From an uncultured Clostridium sp. (lineage in GTDB: Bacteria; Bacillota; Clostridia; TANB77; CAG-508), in assembly GCA_948468275.1 (NCBI GenBank), contig CAOKHI010000001.1, positions 1,866-65,865 of the forward strand: a stretch of 64,000 nucleotides of DNA. Direction: 5' to 3'. The position numbers were made by a program, and so were the translations under genes. The notes under the pieces were generated by a model. It searched no databases. It saw nothing but the letters and a program-made list of their open reading frames with translations, and had not been told where the DNA came from. Numbering within the stretch: the first letter of the stretch is position 1; each line of letters opens with the position of its first letter. Below are positions 45,323-52,278 of this stretch, piece after piece.

Positions 45323-45967
45323 ATGAAAAAAATAAAAATTATTATTGCATTACTATTAATTATGGCAATTTGTACAACAGTTTTTTACTTTTTTTATAAA
45401 AATAATTATAAAACTGCAAATTTAGGAAATACTAATCTTAAGGAAGAAGACATAAAAGAATATATTTTAAATATTAGCTCTTATGAAGCTGAGGTTACAG
45501 TAAATGTAAATAGTAATAAAAATACGAATAAATATGTAATGAAACAACAATATACAAATAAAGGAATATTTAAACAAGAGGTGTTACAACCAAGTAATAT
45601 ACAAGGATTAACAACTAAATATGAAGATGGAAAATTAGTAATAGAAAATACAAAATTAAATCTAAAGCAAATTTATGAAAATTACGAATATGTTTCAGAA
45701 AATTCACTTTGTTTGAATACATTTATCGAAGAATATAAAAAAAGTAATAATTCAAAATTTATAGTAGAAGATAAACAAATAATAATGCAAACAAAAACTC
45801 AAGATAGTGAAAATAAGAAAGTATCAAATAAGAAATTATATATAGATAAAAAAACAGCAAAACCAATTAAATTAGAAATAGAAGATATTAACCAAAAAAT
45901 GCTAGTTTACATATTATATAATGAGATAAAAATAAATAGTACAAATCAAAAAGAATTACTAGCATAA
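45323..45967 (+). CDS. Membrane-anchored or exported hypothetical protein (214 aa)
   Basis: N-terminal signal-anchor, Asn/Lys-rich. RBS aaggagag. A terminator follows ldh at 45267-45297. Confidence 0.45.
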   Translation: MKKIKIIIALLLIMAICTTVFYFFYKNNYKTANLGNTNLKEEDIKEYILNISSYEAEVTVNVNSNKNTNKYVMKQQYTNKGIFKQEVLQPSNIQGLTTKYEDGKLVIENTKLNLKQIYENYEYVSENSLCLNTFIEEYKKSNNSKFIVEDKQIIMQTKTQDSENKKVSNKKLYIDKKTAKPIKLEIEDINQKMLVYILYNEIKINSTNQKELLA

Positions 45968-46078
45968 AAAATAGTAAAACAAAAAACCTAATAACTATAT
46001 TTTTAATCTCAAGCTAAAATTAAAATATATCTAATAAATTCGAAACTAAAAAATACTGTAATATCAGGAGTGAAGAAA

Positions 46079-46429
46079 ATGGTAGTTAAAAGAGGGGATA
46101 TGTTTTATGCAGATTTAAGTCCAGTAGTTGGATCTGAACAAGGAGGAGTTAGACCTGTATTAATAATACAAAACGATATGGGAAACAAATACAGTCCAAC
46201 AGTAATAGCAGCAGCAATAACATCACAAACAGGAAAAAATAAATTACCAACACATATAGAATTAGGTTCTAAAGATTATGGATTAAAATCAGACTCAGTA
46301 GTACTTGCTGAACAAATAAGAACAATAGATAAAAGCAGATTAAAAGAAAAAATAGGGCATATAGATGATAATGAAATAATTAATCAAATAAATAATGCCT
46401 TAGGAGTAAGTTTTGGACTAGAGGAGTAA
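46079..46429 (+). CDS. mazF: MazF/PemK/EndoA-family endoribonuclease toxin
   Basis: [33 protein letters not shown] is almost identical in pattern to B. subtilis EndoA. AGGAG RBS. No antitoxin ORF lies upstream. Confidence 0.8.
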
Positions 46430-47180: not shown

Positions 47181-47295
47181 CTTTTTTAAAGTTTATATAA
47201 ATGTACAAAAGATAAATATCAAGGATATTTAAAAAAGGTGCAAAACTAAAGAAAAATTAAAATTTAAGAATACAAAAGATAAAAAAATTAAGAAC

Positions 47296-47530
47296 AAAAG
47301 ATAAAGTTATTCAAATAAAAGAAAAATAAAATCAAAAGATAAGCTATACAAAAGATAGAAAAAGTAAAATCAAAAGATAAGTTATACAAAAGAAAAAATG
47401 TAAAGTCAAAAGATAAGTTATACAAAAGAAAAAATAAAGTTAAAAGAAAAGTTATACAAAAGAAAAAAGTAAAGTTAAAAGATAAAGCTATACAAAAGAA
47501 GAAAAAAGTAAAATAAAAAGATAAAAATAT
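47296..47530. repeat. Tandem array of about 7 copies of an about 36-bp A-rich unit (CAAAAGATAAGYTATACAAAAGAAAAAAKTAAAGT) between mraZ and rsmH
   Basis: Units read directly. They are contiguous with no unique spacers. Confidence 0.7.
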
Positions 47531-47723
47531 ACAAAAGAAGAAAAGTATAATATTAATATATAATATTAAGAATTTCAAAAGACAAATTACATAGGTACAT
47601 AAAGAATGGTAAAAGTACCAAAGATGATATAAATACTAAAGAAAGAAGAAAAAAGAATATGCAGCAGTTGGTATTTTCTAATGCCAACTGTTATGCTATA
47701 TTATAAAAACAAGAGGTGCAAAG

Positions 47724-48652
47724 TGGAGTTTAACCATAAACCAGTATTATTAAATGAATGTATACAAGGATTAAATATTAAAAAAGATGGTATTTATATA
47801 GATGGTACTATGGGAGGAGCAGGACATAGTTTACAAATAGTAAAAAACTTGTCAAAAGATGGAATGCTTATTGGTATAGATAGAGATACTAAAGCATTAG
47901 AAAGTGCCAAAGAGAGATTAAAACAATTCGACAATATAAAATACATACATGGTAACCATGATAATATAAAAAACATATTAGAAGAAATAAAAGTAGAAAA
48001 AGTAGATGGAATACTATTAGACTTAGGAGTATCATCATATCAAATAGATACACCTGTAAGAGGATTTAGCTACATTCAAGAAAGCCAATTAGATATGAGG
48101 ATGGATACAACACAAACATTAACAGCAAAAGAAGTAGTAAATACATATAAAGAAGAAGATTTAGCAAAAATAATATATGAATATGGTGAGGAAAAGTTTA
48201 GTAGGCAGATTGCAAAAACAATATGTGAATATAGGAATAAAAAGCAAATAGAAACAACATTGGAATTAGTAGATATAATAAAACAAGCTATACCATTTTT
48301 TGATAAAAATGGAGGGCATCCAGCTAAAAGAACATTTCAAGCAATACGAATAGAAGTAAATAATGAAATAGAGCCATTATATAATACAGTAATAGACTGT
48401 ATACATAGTTTAAAACAACAAGGAAGGCTATGTATAATAACATTTCATTCATTAGAAGATAGAGCAGTAAAAAAAGCATATAATGATGCACTTGGAAAAT
48501 GTACATGTCCAAAAGAATTACCATATTGTGTATGCAATGCAAAGAATTTAGGAAAAATAGTAAATAAAAAACCAATATTACCAACAAAAGAAGAACAACA
48601 AAATAATATAAGATCAAAAAGTGCAAAATTAAGAATATTTGAAAAGGTATAA
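47724..48652 (+). CDS. rsmH: 16S rRNA (cytosine1402-N4)-methyltransferase RsmH (MraW)
   Basis: RBS AGAGGTG then GTG 47724 (VEFNHKPVLLNE...). SAM-binding IDGTMGGAGHS. The ORF-track start at 47681 is less likely. Confidence 0.85.
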
Positions 48653-48674
48653 ATAAAAATAGGGAGGTGAGATT

Positions 48675-49196
48675 ATGGCATATAGTAATAGATACCAATA
48701 TGAAACAAGTCCACGAAAATTAGAACCAGAATATAGACCTATAAAAAAGAAATATCCTAAAAAAAGTACAGCAAAAAAGATAAAAGAAGAACCTAAAAAA
48801 TATCCTAAGAAGAAAATAAAAAGTAAAAGACAAATTAAGTCACAACTTAAAATTATAGGATATGTAGTAGTAGTTTTTTCAATACTATTGGCCATAAGCT
48901 ATAGAAATTCTCTAATAAACGAAAATTTTGCACAAATAAAAAAATTAAGAGCGGATTTAGCATCAATTGAAAAAGAAAATGAGCAACTACAAGTAAATAT
49001 AGAAAATAATCTAAACTTAAAAACAGTAGAACAATCTGCACAAGAACAATTAGGAATGCAAAAATTAAATAGTTCACAAAAAGTATATGTAAATTTACCA
49101 AAACAAGATTATATAGAACCTGCAACAGAAGAAATAAAAAAAGAAGAGAACACAAATTGGTTAAAGAAAATAATAAAGATATTTATAGGAAAATAA
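48675..49196 (+). CDS. ftsL: FtsL/DivIC-like septum-formation protein
   Basis: Basic N-terminus, one TM helix (IIGYVVVVFSILLAI), then a coiled coil. RBS GGGAGGTG. A terminator follows at 49195-49228. Confidence 0.6.
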   Translation: MAYSNRYQYETSPRKLEPEYRPIKKKYPKKSTAKKIKEEPKKYPKKKIKSKRQIKSQLKIIGYVVVVFSILLAISYRNSLINENFAQIKKLRADLASIEKENEQLQVNIENNLNLKTVEQSAQEQLGMQKLNSSQKVYVNLPKQDYIEPATEEIKKEENTNWLKKIIKIFIGK

Positions 49197-49417
49197 AGAA
49201 TAAATTTGAAAATGTTATTCTTTATTTTTATTATTATAAGAAGGATCTATTCTTTAATAAAAAAGAATGTAAAAATAAAAGCATAATAAATATAGCTGGT
49301 TAAATAAACAGTTACATAATTTGCTAGATTCCTATAAATAGGATATAATAGATATGTATTAAAAACATTATATTTAAAAGCATTACAACTCTAAGGTAAA
49401 AGTTTTATTAAAATCCA

Positions 49418-49446
49418 TTGACAACAAGAAACATTTGTTTTAAAAT
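49418..49446 (+). promoter_or_regulatory. Promoter TTGACA-N17-TAAAAT upstream of the toxSAS-like gene
   Basis: Direct read. Confidence 0.45.
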
Positions 49447-49541
49447 GTGAATAGACTATATTTACAAAACTAAAAAAGTGATAAAAGCATAAAAAATTTA
49501 AATTTGTATGTTAGAATATATAAAAAGAAAGAGAAAATCAT

Positions 49542-50156
49542 ATGTTAGAAGAGTTAGAAAAGTTAATTGATTTTATACAAACGGAATATATTGATTTTAC
49601 ACAACAATGGGAAAATAACTATTATTATTCAAAAATAAATCTAAAAAGTACCTTAGTTCGTGAAGTCTTAGAAAATAAAATACTTTTAGATTCAATAATT
49701 AGTTATAGAGAATTTATTAATGAAAACAATATACAATTACTAATGGATTTTAAGCAGTTTAGTACAGAGAAATCAAAGGTTAATATCAGGACAAAAGCTA
49801 AAAACTCCATAGAATATAAAATAAAAAATTATATGGAAAATCATGAGAATGGAAAAGTACCAATTAACAAGTGTTTTAATGATTTATTTGGGATAAGAAT
49901 TATTTGCGAAGATAAACTTACTTATAACAAAATTGCTAATTTGATAAACAATAAATATAGTGAATTAAAGTGTATTGATTCTTCTAAAAAAGATTACAAA
50001 GCAACACATATATATTTTAAAAAGAACAATTTTAATTTTCAATGGGAATTACAAGTATGGAATAAAGTAGATGAGATAAACAATATAGAATCGCATGAAA
50101 AATATAAACAAGATTATGTTAGATGGGAAAGGGAAAATAAAGGAGGGAATAAATAG
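49542..50156 (+). CDS. RelA/SpoT-domain small alarmone synthetase-like protein (toxSAS-like toxin, PanT candidate)
   Basis: SAS motifs RTKAKNSIEYKI (R-K..S...K), DLFGIRIIC (GIRxxC), DYKATHIYF (GY+S+H+) and ELQVWN...ESHEKYKQ (EIQIRT...EH..YK). 204 aa. The stop overlaps the downstream start. Confidence 0.65.
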   Translation: MLEELEKLIDFIQTEYIDFTQQWENNYYYSKINLKSTLVREVLENKILLDSIISYREFINENNIQLLMDFKQFSTEKSKVNIRTKAKNSIEYKIKNYMENHENGKVPINKCFNDLFGIRIICEDKLTYNKIANLINNKYSELKCIDSSKKDYKATHIYFKKNNFNFQWELQVWNKVDEINNIESHEKYKQDYVRWERENKGGNK

Positions 50157-50908
50157 TGGTAACTCATTTTATATTTATGAGCAGTTCATATTCATTAGGA
50201 ACAAGAATTGCGCTTGATTTTATAGTGAGAGAAGCAAGCATACAAGAGGAATTGAAAAAAGACTTAGACAAAATTATTTCACAATGTGGTAGAGATGTAT
50301 CTATTTCAACTCATATGATACAAGGCGATGACGAAACATGGGAATCAGTTTGCATGGCAGATCACTTTTTCAAAGGGGTTAAAGTAATAGAAGATTTAGA
50401 AACATTTATCAGTTTAATAAAAAAGGATAGAAAACTACAGGGAATAGATGTAGCAAAATATATTTTATCAAAAATTACATGTACTCAATTAAAGTTGCAA
50501 AAGTTAGTGTATTTATGTTTTGCGGATTATTTATGCGATACAGGAAAAATATTATTCACAGATAAAATTTATGCTTTTAAGTATGGTCCTGTTGTAGATA
50601 CTGTATATAAAAAATATAAAGAATATGGATATGAAGCAATTGAAGAAGAAAAGGGGGATATTGATACTGAAGGTATATTTGAAATGCCAGCAAAAAGTAG
50701 AATATTGTTTGCAGAAGATGGAACAGGAAAAATAGTTAACATAGAAAAAACACTAAAAAAGTATGGAAATTTAACAGCAACAGAATTAGTTCATTTGACA
50801 CATAGGGAGTGTTCACCATGGAATAAAACTTATAAGGGAGAAGAAAGAGCATATTCGCAGATAGGATTAAATACAATTAAAGAATATCATAAATTCGAAA
50901 CAATATAA
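50156..50908 (+). CDS. Panacea-domain (DUF4065) protein, candidate antitoxin (PanA)
   Basis: KLQKLVYLCFADYLCDTGKILFTDKIYAFKYGPVVDTVYKKYKEYG matches the DUF4065 core. RBS AGGAGGG then GTG 50156. Confidence 0.65.
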   Translation: MVTHFIFMSSSYSLGTRIALDFIVREASIQEELKKDLDKIISQCGRDVSISTHMIQGDDETWESVCMADHFFKGVKVIEDLETFISLIKKDRKLQGIDVAKYILSKITCTQLKLQKLVYLCFADYLCDTGKILFTDKIYAFKYGPVVDTVYKKYKEYGYEAIEEEKGDIDTEGIFEMPAKSRILFAEDGTGKIVNIEKTLKKYGNLTATELVHLTHRECSPWNKTYKGEERAYSQIGLNTIKEYHKFETI

Positions 50909-51066
50909 TTTTTTTAGTTTAATTTATTTGTATAATTTACAAATTATATTATTTGGAATTTATTAGATACTTTTTCATTTATAGAATTAGATAACATAAA
51001 AACTATTGAAAAAGATAGTATATTTATGGTATAGTGACATAAATACTAAATGGAGGGAAAATTAAA

Positions 51067-51606
51067 GTGAGAATATTATTAACAAGACATGGTCAAACAG
51101 ATTGGAATGTATTAAAAAAAATACAAGGATGTACAGATATAGAGTTAAATGAAAAAGGAATTGAGCAAGCAAAAGAGGCAAGGAAAAAATTATTAGAATA
51201 TGATATTGATTATATTATAGCATCGCCATTAAAAAGAGCTAAAAAAACAGCAGAAATAATTAATGAAGGAAGAAATATCCCTTTAATTGTAAGTGATGAT
51301 ATTAAAGAAAGAAATTTTGGAAAATTCGAAGGTAAAACAGCCAAAGAAATTGATTTTGATGAGATATGGAATTATAAATTAAATAAACAATATAAACATG
51401 CAGAAAGTGTGGGAGAAGTATTTGATAGAGTTAGTGGATTTATGAATAATTTGAAACATAAATATGATGATAAAACAGTACTTCTAGTAACTCATGGAGG
51501 AATATGTGTACCAATTAGAGCATATTTTGAAGGAATACCAGAAGGAATGGATGTTTTAAAAGGAATGGGGCTAGACAATTGTCAAATAAAAGAATATAAT
51601 CTATAA
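51067..51606 (+). CDS. Histidine phosphatase family protein (phosphoglycerate mutase-like)
   Basis: RHGQTDWN catalytic motif. 179 aa. Confidence 0.75.
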   Translation: MRILLTRHGQTDWNVLKKIQGCTDIELNEKGIEQAKEARKKLLEYDIDYIIASPLKRAKKTAEIINEGRNIPLIVSDDIKERNFGKFEGKTAKEIDFDEIWNYKLNKQYKHAESVGEVFDRVSGFMNNLKHKYDDKTVLLVTHGGICVPIRAYFEGIPEGMDVLKGMGLDNCQIKEYNL

Positions 51607-51684: not shown

Positions 51685-52278
51685 ATGTTAAAGATGAAGG
51701 AATTACCATATAATTTGAATTCATTAGAGCCTTATTACTCTAAAGAAACTTTAGACATTCATTATAATGTTTTATATAAAGGATATGTGGATAATACAAA
51801 TAAAACAGAAGAAAAATTAAAAATAGCAAGACAAGAAAATAATTTTCAAAATATTAAATGTTTAGAAAGGGATCTAAGTTTTTATGGTTCAGGAGCAATA
51901 TTACATGAAATGTTTTTTGAAAATATGGGAATACCTCTACCAACTACACCAAGTAATGAACTTATTAATCAAATAAATCAAGACTTTGGAAGCTTTGATA
52001 AATTTCAAAATCAATTTATAGAAGCAGCAAAAGCAGTAGAAGCATCACGGATGGTGTATATTAGTATGGGGAGAAAGATTCAAAAAATTAGAGATACTAC
52101 AGTGTGAAAAACATCAAAATTTAACACTTTGGGGATGTGTACCAATATTTGTTCTAGATATGTGGGAACATTCATATTTTTTGCAATATAAAGCAAATAG
52201 AGCAGAATATATAAATGCATTTAAAAACATAATTAATTGGAATGTAATAAATAAAAGATTTGAACAAATTAATAAATA
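51685..52278 (+). CDS. sodA: Fe/Mn superoxide dismutase-like protein, frameshifted (+1) at about 52048; some metal-ligand positions look divergent
   Basis: N-terminal part ELPYNLNSLEPYYSKETLDIH..., FGSFDKF. The C-terminal SOD signature LWGCVPIFVLDMWEHSYFLQYKANRAEYINAF is in the +1 frame (52110-52278). Deleting the C in tcaCggatgg restores ASGWCILV... Confidence 0.75.

Follow-up and report, generated by a model that had tools for sequence, protein, structure and literature searches.

We found that a 64-kb stretch of DNA from an uncultured gut Clostridium (contig CAOKHI010000001.1 of assembly GCA_948468275.1; hereafter the window, with coordinates counted from its first letter) contains a small, self-contained toxin-antitoxin (TA) pair of a known type, located in the chromosome after ftsL. 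The pair is an additional member of a known, experimentally characterised class in which a toxic small alarmone synthetase (toxSAS) is encoded together with a protein that carries a Panacea (DUF4065) domain. A preliminary description of this DNA had proposed a toxSAS-like toxin and a Panacea antitoxin. Profile searches, predicted fold and full-length homology uphold that reading; it was essentially right, and the result is a solid annotation of modest interest. The analysis itself shows how the genes are built, which domains they encode and how the models fold, and also that the catalytic residues and the pairing of the two genes are conserved, that selection is purifying and that the cassette is mobile.

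We think it likely that the pair is a functional type II TA system, in which the toxin pyrophosphorylates the 3'-CCA ends of tRNAs and PAD1, the N-terminal Panacea-associated domain of the antitoxin, blocks the ATP donor site of the toxin. The locus would be a chromosomal type II cassette of the PhRel2:PAD1-PanA kind. Its 204-aa toxin would be a pyrophosphokinase of RelA/SpoT fold that acts on tRNA 3'-CCA ends. The 250-aa antitoxin would be translated by coupling through the overlap of the two genes (TAGTG) and would bind the toxin directly. PAD1, with a pseudo-zinc-finger fold like that of ATfaRel2, would occlude the site of ATP, the pyrophosphate donor, and the C-terminal Panacea domain would be an accessory, possibly sensory, platform. 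Toxicity, the tRNA substrate, the site of neutralisation and a role in phage defence are predicted by analogy with characterised relatives.

Structure of the gene pair

The two open reading frames (ORFs) are where they had been reported, at 49542-50156 and 50156-50908 on the same strand (Table 1). The antitoxin ORF does begin at the toxin stop: TAG (50154-50156) and GTG (50156-50158) have one base in common. Together with the AGGAGG sequence shortly upstream, this overlap suggests a layout typical of translational coupling. The GTG start is supported because the N-terminus that it gives, M-x-x-H-F-I, is conserved in phage homologues, many of which are annotated as proteins of 249-250 aa.

The GC content of the DNA is ~28%, and neither gene is anomalous in composition. 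GC content at third codon positions is slightly raised in both genes (0.18-0.20, versus 0.08-0.15 in most neighbours and up to 0.17 in mraZ). Composition was considered as evidence of a foreign origin and rejected, since GC content is unremarkable and the shift at third positions is too weak to use.

Both genes have homologues in phages. A tblastn search of phage genomes gave both genes side by side, toxin first, in Paenibacillus phage Lily (toxin gp31, 36% identity, E = 1e-19; antitoxin gp32, 35% over residues 1-247, E = 8e-36) and in Geobacillus phage GBSV1 (toxin gp12, 33%, E = 5e-23; antitoxin gp13, 39%, E = 1e-44). Both window proteins align with these over their full length. The toxSAS of phage Lily has been named PhRel2, and its antitoxin is a multidomain protein containing PAD1 (PMC11782079). 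PhRel2:PanA pairs of Bacillus subtilis Ia1a and Lactobacillus animalis are validated TA systems; they assemble into complexes and block translation (PMC7229694, PMC8832971), and PhRel2 pyrophosphorylates tRNA in vitro (PMC11559606).

Table 1. Positions of the cassette, its parts and other loci named in the text (window coordinates unless a contig is given)
Feature	Position	Strand	Remarks
A/U-rich hairpin with T-run	49190..49234	+	straddles ftsL stop codon (49194-49196); terminator-like end of mraZ-rsmH-ftsL unit
Distal promoter P1, TTGACA-N17-TAAAAT	49418..49446	+	11/12 match to consensus; left edge of mobile cassette
Dyad AACATTTGTT in P1 spacer	49430..49439	+	candidate operator
Proximal extended -10-like element P2, TGTTAGAAT	49509..49517	+	24 nt before toxin ATG
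Toxin gene	49542..50156	+	ATG start, 204 aa; PhRel2/FaRel2-like toxSAS, toxSYNTH domain and N-terminal helical extension
Antitoxin ribosome-binding site, AGGAGG	50141..50146	+	within 3' end of toxin gene, nine bases before GTG; read from sequence
Antitoxin gene	50156..50908	+	GTG start, 250 aa; PAD1-Panacea protein
PAD1-like N-terminal domain	50156..50449	+	residues 1-98; predicted toxin-neutralising module
Panacea (DUF4065, SocA-like) domain	50495..50821	+	residues 114-222, including G144-P145-V146
Long A/U-rich hairpin	50879..50973	+	spans antitoxin stop codon; possible terminator
Wadjet type II operon	34493-42699	+	7-15 kb upstream of pair
Gene for 214-aa protein	45323-45967		before MazF gene
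MazF/PemK toxin gene	46070-46429	+	3 kb upstream of pair
mraZ-rsmH spacer	47181-47680		500 nt
140-aa ORF	51685-52107	+	Sod_Fe_N match
Cassette followed by PBP gene	L142 4283-7276; L151 396-3391; L152 2572-5567; L153 1332-4327
McrB-like gene and partner	L047 11623-14727		at ftsL-PBP junction
tRNA-Met	L131 5738-5814		~190 nt upstream of cassette
Toxin homologues split over two frames	L165 6001-6640; L169 182-786; L170 6001-6607

The toxin is very probably an active pyrophosphokinase

All motifs quoted in the preliminary description were found in the sequence. In the toxin they are R83-x-K85-x3-S89-x3-K93, G117-I-R-I-I-C122, D151-Y-K-A-T-H156 and E169-L-Q-V-W-N...S-H-E-K-Y-K189. The RelA_SpoT family (PF04607) matched the toxin with 26.5 bits (E = 8e-6, Pfam; curated cutoff 27 bits), and it was matched by every one of 77 diverse homologues at E <= 0.001 (best 7.6e-12).

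The toxin most resembles FaRel2 among proteins of solved structure. With a profile of the toxin family, the matches in the PDB were FaRel2 (E = 2.4e-14), CapRel-SJ46 (6.5e-4) and the housekeeping small alarmone synthetase (SAS) YwaC (1e-3). A high-confidence AlphaFold2 model built on the family alignment (predicted local distance difference test, pLDDT, 94.5; predicted template modelling score, pTM, 0.89) has the toxSYNTH fold, a five-stranded sheet framed by helices, and carries an N-terminal helical extension (helices at residues 2-24, 46-61 and 63-71). When the model was compared with the PDB using Foldseek, FaRel2 chains were the best matches (E = 1.5e-7; template modelling score, TM, 0.55-0.69), ahead of RelP, RelQ and CapRel.

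The catalytic residues are kept. In FaRel2, ATP and Mg2+ binding and the G-loop involve R64, K66, S70, K74, D90, G93, R95, Y128, E145 and Q147 (PMC11782079). A HMMER alignment places R83, K85, S89, K93, D114, G117, R119, Y152, E169 and Q171 of the toxin at these positions, so that 10 of the 11 donor-site and catalytic residues compared are identical. Nine of the ten kept positions do not vary at all among the 77 homologues, and the tenth, R83, has a conservation of at least 90%. Based on the kept catalytic residues and the FaRel2-like profile and fold, we suggest that the toxin is very probably an active pyrophosphokinase.

The antitoxin combines a PAD1-like domain with Panacea

The DUF4065 core described earlier lies at K113-LQKLVYL and Y139-AFKYGPVVDTVY. 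SocA_Panacea (PF13274) matched residues 114-222 with 63.1 bits (cutoff 25.7), and the NCBIfam model SocA_antitoxin matched at E = 1e-21, well below its equivalog cutoff. The GPV motif (G144-P145-V146), which matters for neutralisation (PMC8832971), is invariant across homologues.

We found that the ~98 residues ahead of Panacea, overlooked in the first reading, are equally conserved from gut metagenome-assembled genomes to phages. Antitoxin homologues in protein databases are all ~250 aa long and cover the query fully. No Pfam family matched the N-terminal 110 aa. PAD1 has been described as an N-terminal domain with conserved histidines that occurs almost only with toxSAS toxins, always with the toxin gene upstream (PMC8832971); it has the fold of pseudo-zinc-finger domains (pZFD), and on its own it suffices to neutralise B. 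subtilis PhRel2 (PMC10440598, PMC11782079). The window antitoxin family fits this description, with a conserved N-terminal extension of ~100 aa, histidines at least 90% conserved (H4 and H53), and the toxin gene upstream in all loci. In the model, the N-terminal domain has the ATfaRel2 fold.

The two genes occur together and are under purifying selection

The toxin belongs to a large family. A word-index search gave 486 clusters at 90% identity. At 50% identity, 469 representative clusters matched at E <= 0.001, and 78 of these reached E <= 1e-30. In IMG/VR, a toxin homologue was directly followed by a full-length antitoxin homologue at 38 of 39 loci, down to ~30% identity, and the exception was cut by the contig end. 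The antitoxin directly followed the toxin in 18/22 metagenome loci. Three of the others were cut by contig ends; the last, L168, had only a partial antitoxin match after the toxin (~100 aa, 49%). The antitoxin was also adjacent in all examined contigs encoding a toxin homologue that had sequence downstream of it.

These results bear on the idea that the toxin is a housekeeping SAS, a RelQ/RelP-like (p)ppGpp synthetase, that happens to lie beside an unrelated DUF4065 gene and forms no TA pair with it. The RelA_SpoT domain and the presence of RelP, RelQ and YwaC among the fold and profile matches would fit such an enzyme, as would a chromosomal position among housekeeping genes with no anomaly in composition. 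However, SAS enzymes matched far more weakly than FaRel2 (1e-3 versus 2.4e-14; TM 0.38 versus 0.55-0.69), and the genes overlap by 1 nt and co-occur strictly down to ~30% identity. Furthermore, the pair moves jointly among at least nine contexts, is absent from this locus in 80 of 80 related species (our comparison set, 77 of which had sequence downstream of ftsL), and has homologues in phages and in PHROG 4012. We therefore consider a housekeeping enzyme highly improbable.

Both genes are under purifying selection. Ratios of nonsynonymous to synonymous substitution rates (dN/dS) against five relatives were low both in the toxin gene (0.07-0.21) and in the antitoxin gene (0.12-0.17), and the PAD1 and Panacea halves were under similar constraint. 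The pair was 100% identical in three independent samples. These findings make a decaying, inactive TA remnant very unlikely: both window ORFs are intact, with all compared catalytic residues kept except as noted below, dN/dS is low and the sequence recurs unchanged. What might speak for decay is that in some metagenome copies the toxin match is divided between two reading frames (L165, L169 and L170). In L169 and L170 the antitoxin beside the split toxin is intact, and L165 ends at the toxin. The split copies are possibly pseudogenes or assembly errors; a split toxin beside an intact antitoxin is the pattern expected if the toxin is harmful.

Substrate of the toxin and mode of neutralisation

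A toxin with the same TA architecture might instead poison metabolism by making (pp)pApp from ATP, ADP or AMP and depleting ATP, like FaRel and Tas1. Residues of the donor site and the G-loop are common to all pyrophosphokinases of the RelA/SpoT homologue family and so do not discriminate between acceptors, and the original description of toxSASs in 2020 assumed alarmone synthesis (PMC7229694). Several observations point to tRNA. The family profile found tRNA-targeting FaRel2 and CapRel in the PDB and no (pp)pApp synthetase at E <= 0.01. PhRel2, the closest named relative, modifies tRNA (PMC11559606). The model has an N-terminal helical extension as in FaRel2, where it anchors tRNA. Antitoxins of the pZFD/PAD1 type, which the window antitoxin resembles, go with tRNA-targeting enzymes (PMC11782079), whereas toxSASs that make (pp)pApp are reportedly neutralised at the acceptor site by Tis1-like domains or by hydrolases (PMC11782079). 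We regard (pp)pApp synthesis as unlikely and prefer tRNA pyrophosphorylation.

Several points weigh against a PhRel2-like, tRNA-modifying toxin held in check by PAD1. The choice of acceptor, tRNA or adenine nucleotides, is not readable from sequence. Characterised family members are all at or below about 40% identity to the toxin, and the label PhRel2 rests on homology to phage Lily, with Lily PhRel2 taken to be gp31 by record annotation. The FaRel2 residue R77 is replaced by N96. No NCBIfam or PADLOC model matched the toxin, and no PADLOC family matched the antitoxin (PADLOC-DB v2, E <= 1 for both proteins). Of the two profile checks suggested earlier, PF13274 scored well above its cutoff and PF04607 fell 0.5 bit short; family-wide matches and the structure model overrule that shortfall, and the borderline score, as the homologous sequences indicate, is a property of this one sequence and not of the family.

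Other such points concern the antitoxin. The likeness of the PAD1 domain to ATfaRel2 is at the level of fold only (15% identity), and a PAD1 profile gave only spurious doublecortin matches in the PDB (E > 0.3), with no solved structure found by sequence. The YXXY motif with which ATfaRel2 and CapRel plug the donor site is absent from residues 1-98. A conserved W62-x-S64-V65 after beta-3 may occupy a place topologically similar to that of YXXY in ATfaRel2. The model of the antitoxin is of low confidence in part of Panacea (pLDDT < 50 at residues 132-182).

A possible role in phage defence

The proposed system could extend to abortive infection, with a phage protein sensed by PAD1, Panacea or both freeing the toxin. 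There is a precedent, as a capsid protein acts in this way on the pZFD of CapRel-SJ46, and PAD1 has a fold of this phage-sensing class (PMC10440598, PMC9712102). Homologous pairs occur in temperate phages, beside lysis genes in Lily, and in 39 IMG/VR contigs. A Wadjet type II operon and a MazF toxin gene lie upstream in the window, and a relative carries a gene for a McrB-like AAA_5 protein (in L047) at the same junction between ftsL and a penicillin-binding protein (PBP) gene. On the other side, no PADLOC model matched either protein, housekeeping genes separate the defence loci so that there is no tight defence island, and no PAD1-PanA system has a known trigger. Selfish addiction or stabilisation accounts equally well for the distribution. 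We hold a defence role to be possible but on balance doubtful.

Promoters and boundaries of the cassette

The promoter TTGACA-N17-TAAAAT (P1) claimed in the preliminary description is real, and no other site in the region matches the consensus better. Promoter-like sites in the region are at chance level for such AT-rich DNA (21 found, 19.6 expected). P1 is credible because it is conserved across independent contexts, not because of match count. Its hexamers are kept in four unrelated genomic contexts, and conservation starts at the -35 hexamer (49418); upstream of TTGACA the sequences are no more alike in local alignments than shuffled ones. Among the four copies from unrelated neighbourhoods, conservation stops at the antitoxin stop codon and the downstream sequence is not conserved. 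As delimited by these alignments, the cassette is ~1.5 kb long (49418-50908) with its own promoter or promoters.

The P1 spacer contains the dyad AACA-N2-TGTT in its 3' half, and the 5' half varies. Of 27 copies checked, 18 carry both the P1 hexamers and the dyad; these 18 all belong to the 24 that have toxins of >= 60% identity. The dyad may be an operator, and no DNA-binding domain is evident in the toxin or the antitoxin. A second element, P2, has the form TGnTAnnAT and occurs 29-35 nt before the toxin start in nearly all close copies, even those without P1.

A/U-rich hairpins lie near both ends of the region, and a scan for GC-rich intrinsic terminators found none. The hairpin at the ftsL stop is a perfect 14-nt inverted repeat (49190-49203/49215-49228; RNA fold -11.4 kcal/mol, z = -3.0). 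It is conserved in the related contigs L137 and L138, after which the sequences diverge. The long hairpin at the antitoxin stop has 33-nt arms that are 85% complementary (fold -16.7 kcal/mol, z = -2.4).

The cassette is mobile as a unit

We found the cassette in at least nine unrelated chromosomal contexts, with promoter and boundaries conserved. It lies after ftsL, between an ABC permease gene and feoB, after tRNA-Met, after spoIIIAH, upstream of a PBP gene of the type found in the division and cell wall (dcw) cluster, on either side of an AAA_14/DUF4143 gene, before a DUF3990 gene, and after a Na/Ca exchanger gene. No integrase, transposase or recombinase gene adjoined any copy examined. A search of its flanks for target-site duplications and terminal inverted repeats gave only short, A/T-rich repeats of the kind expected by chance.

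A tRNA remnant upstream of the cassette was also considered and rejected. In L131 a tRNA-Met lies upstream of the cassette, and a MAFFT alignment had hinted at similarity. Local alignments of the sequences upstream of TTGACA were no better than those of shuffled sequences, ARAGORN found no tRNA in the window, and Rfam gave nothing in 48600-51300 (E <= 1).

There are signs of rearrangement around some copies. One identical toxin, P0011, has two different downstream neighbours, PBP (L151-L153) or DUF3990/DUF3791 (L154). The AAA_14/DUF4143 gene is upstream of the cassette in L145 (of the group L145-L147) and downstream in L148 and L155. Together they point to recent, local reshuffling of the cassette's surroundings.

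The junction after ftsL is variable

The host belongs with uncultured gut Clostridia related to 'Clostridium sp. CAG:440/CAG:452', as judged from the best match of RsmH (76% identity). In the comparison set, rsmH-ftsL is kept in 80/80 species, with mraZ detected in 78 of them, and the ftsL locus lacks the cassette in all 80. A class B PBP gene (Transpeptidase, PBP_dimer and PASTA domains) directly follows ftsL in 52/77 species, often with a MurE-type ligase gene and more dcw genes after it. One or two unrelated genes lie between ftsL and the PBP gene in 10/77, and no PBP is encoded among the first four ORFs in 15/77. The gene order in the window is thus atypical, as had been noted. The accompanying claim that the pair stands in place of dcw genes such as ftsI and murE does not hold as a simple replacement, since the junction varies in about one third of related species. 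Within this clade the site after ftsL has varied repeatedly and holds many different cargoes, of which the cassette is one.

The cargo between ftsL and the PBP gene in relatives includes genes for SDR-family proteins, Cu/Zn superoxide dismutase, sulfatase, and choline-binding and DUF285/leucine-rich-repeat surface proteins. In L047 it consists of the McrB-like AAA_5 ATPase and a 417-aa partner. Further relatives with cargo just downstream of ftsL are L020, L028, L030, L049, L062, L063, L064 and L071.

No homologue of the genes found after ftsL in L012 and L035, those for PBP and MurE included, occurs in the 64-kb window. Homology with the nearest relative (FtsL 82% identity) ends ~50 nt past the ftsL stop, just beyond the hairpin. 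That relative was tried as an empty site and rejected, as its contigs end 160-290 nt after ftsL with the start of a different, lipoprotein-like gene; it gives no clean empty site. In the lineages with toxins P0010 and P0011, which are 82-83% identical to that of the window, the cassette lies immediately upstream of a PBP gene. The PBP is 83% identical to the one encoded after ftsL in L012 and 81% to that of L139, where ftsL-PBP is intact.

The window (ftsL, TA pair, unrelated genes) and L142 and L151-L153 (unrelated genes, TA pair, orthologous dcw PBP) therefore have reciprocal halves of one junction. An ancestral ftsL-TA-PBP order that was later broken could account for this, as could recombination between cassette copies that exchanged flanks, or the coincidence of a hot spot. 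An intact ftsL-TA-PBP order was found in none of the contigs from ten look-ups for the toxin and its homologues, the 22 metagenome loci or the 39 viral loci. We give little credence to a further speculation, in which the junction is a recurrent landing and rearrangement site in the clade and the cassette, more than a passive passenger, helped to split the dcw cluster.

Neighbouring genes

Other genes in the window are listed in Table 1. The Wadjet type II operon, an anti-plasmid system, is complete (JetA2-JetB2-JetC2-JetD2; PADLOC E = 1e-182, 2e-128, 0 and 1e-122, respectively). No MazE-like ORF lies upstream of the MazF/PemK gene (Pfam, 118 bits), which is preceded by a gene for a 214-aa protein that has an N-terminal hydrophobic segment and no Pfam match, an arrangement conserved in the relatives L013 and L091. 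Downstream of the pair, the 140-aa ORF matches Sod_Fe_N but only weakly Sod_Fe_C and probably encodes an Fe/Mn superoxide dismutase that is truncated or frameshifted; in the independent sample L001 the ORF is likewise called at 140 aa. The mraZ-rsmH spacer is extremely A-rich on the plus strand (GC 17%, AT skew ~0.5); in most relatives this spacer is ~250-450 nt.

Significance and comparison with known systems

The pair adds a large, uncharacterised gut-Clostridia branch to the validated PhRel2:PAD1-PanA class. For this branch the limits of the cassette are now clear, and two promoter elements are seen to be conserved, one of them with a candidate operator dyad. It is useful for annotation because the toxin falls just under the Pfam cutoff and is unnamed in NCBIfam and PADLOC, and a compact 204-aa toxSAS would be a handy choice for studies of tRNA specificity or of triggers. 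No new mechanism is revealed. The place at a broken dcw junction is a modest curiosity of genome plasticity and leaves cell-division biology unchanged.

Like SocAB of Caulobacter and other PanAT systems, the pair has a Panacea/DUF4065 domain. SocA serves an unrelated toxin as a proteolytic adaptor; in contrast, the window antitoxin is expected to bind directly through PAD1, and its toxin is a toxSAS. CapRel-SJ46 (PDB 7ZTB) also has a toxSYNTH domain controlled by a domain of the pZFD class, and its reported mechanism, tRNA pyrophosphorylation, may be common to the window system. Unlike the window pair, CapRel-SJ46 joins toxin and antitoxin in one polypeptide, has no Panacea domain and has a known trigger, a phage capsid protein.

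FaRel2:ATfaRel2 of Coprobacillus sp. D7 (PDB 8PU1, 8PU3 and 8PU4) shares the N-terminal helical extension of the toxin model. FaRel2 acts specifically on tRNA-Gly and tRNA-Thr, and subfamilies differ in their specificity (PMC11559606). ATfaRel2, a pZFD of 74 aa that stands alone, carries a YXXY plug, whereas the pZFD-like domain of the window antitoxin lacks YXXY and is fused to Panacea. The window toxin is only ~21% identical to FaRel2.

The closest systems are those of the PhRel2:PAD1-PanA class (B. subtilis Ia1a, L. animalis and phage Lily). The window pair differs from them in several respects. Its toxin has 204 aa and a trimmed N-terminus, versus 224-241 aa in the phage proteins, and its genes overlap by one base whereas relatives have a short spacer. 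The host is an uncultured gut Clostridium with 28% GC, the location is chromosomal and outside any recognisable prophage, and only the subclade of the window has the promoter with the AACAnnTGTT dyad. In contrast, the architecture is the same: a toxin-first bicistron with a toxSAS toxin, and an antitoxin that has an N-terminal PAD1 with conserved histidines and a C-terminal Panacea with GPV and that is 35-39% identical, end to end, to Lily gp32 and GBSV1 gp13.

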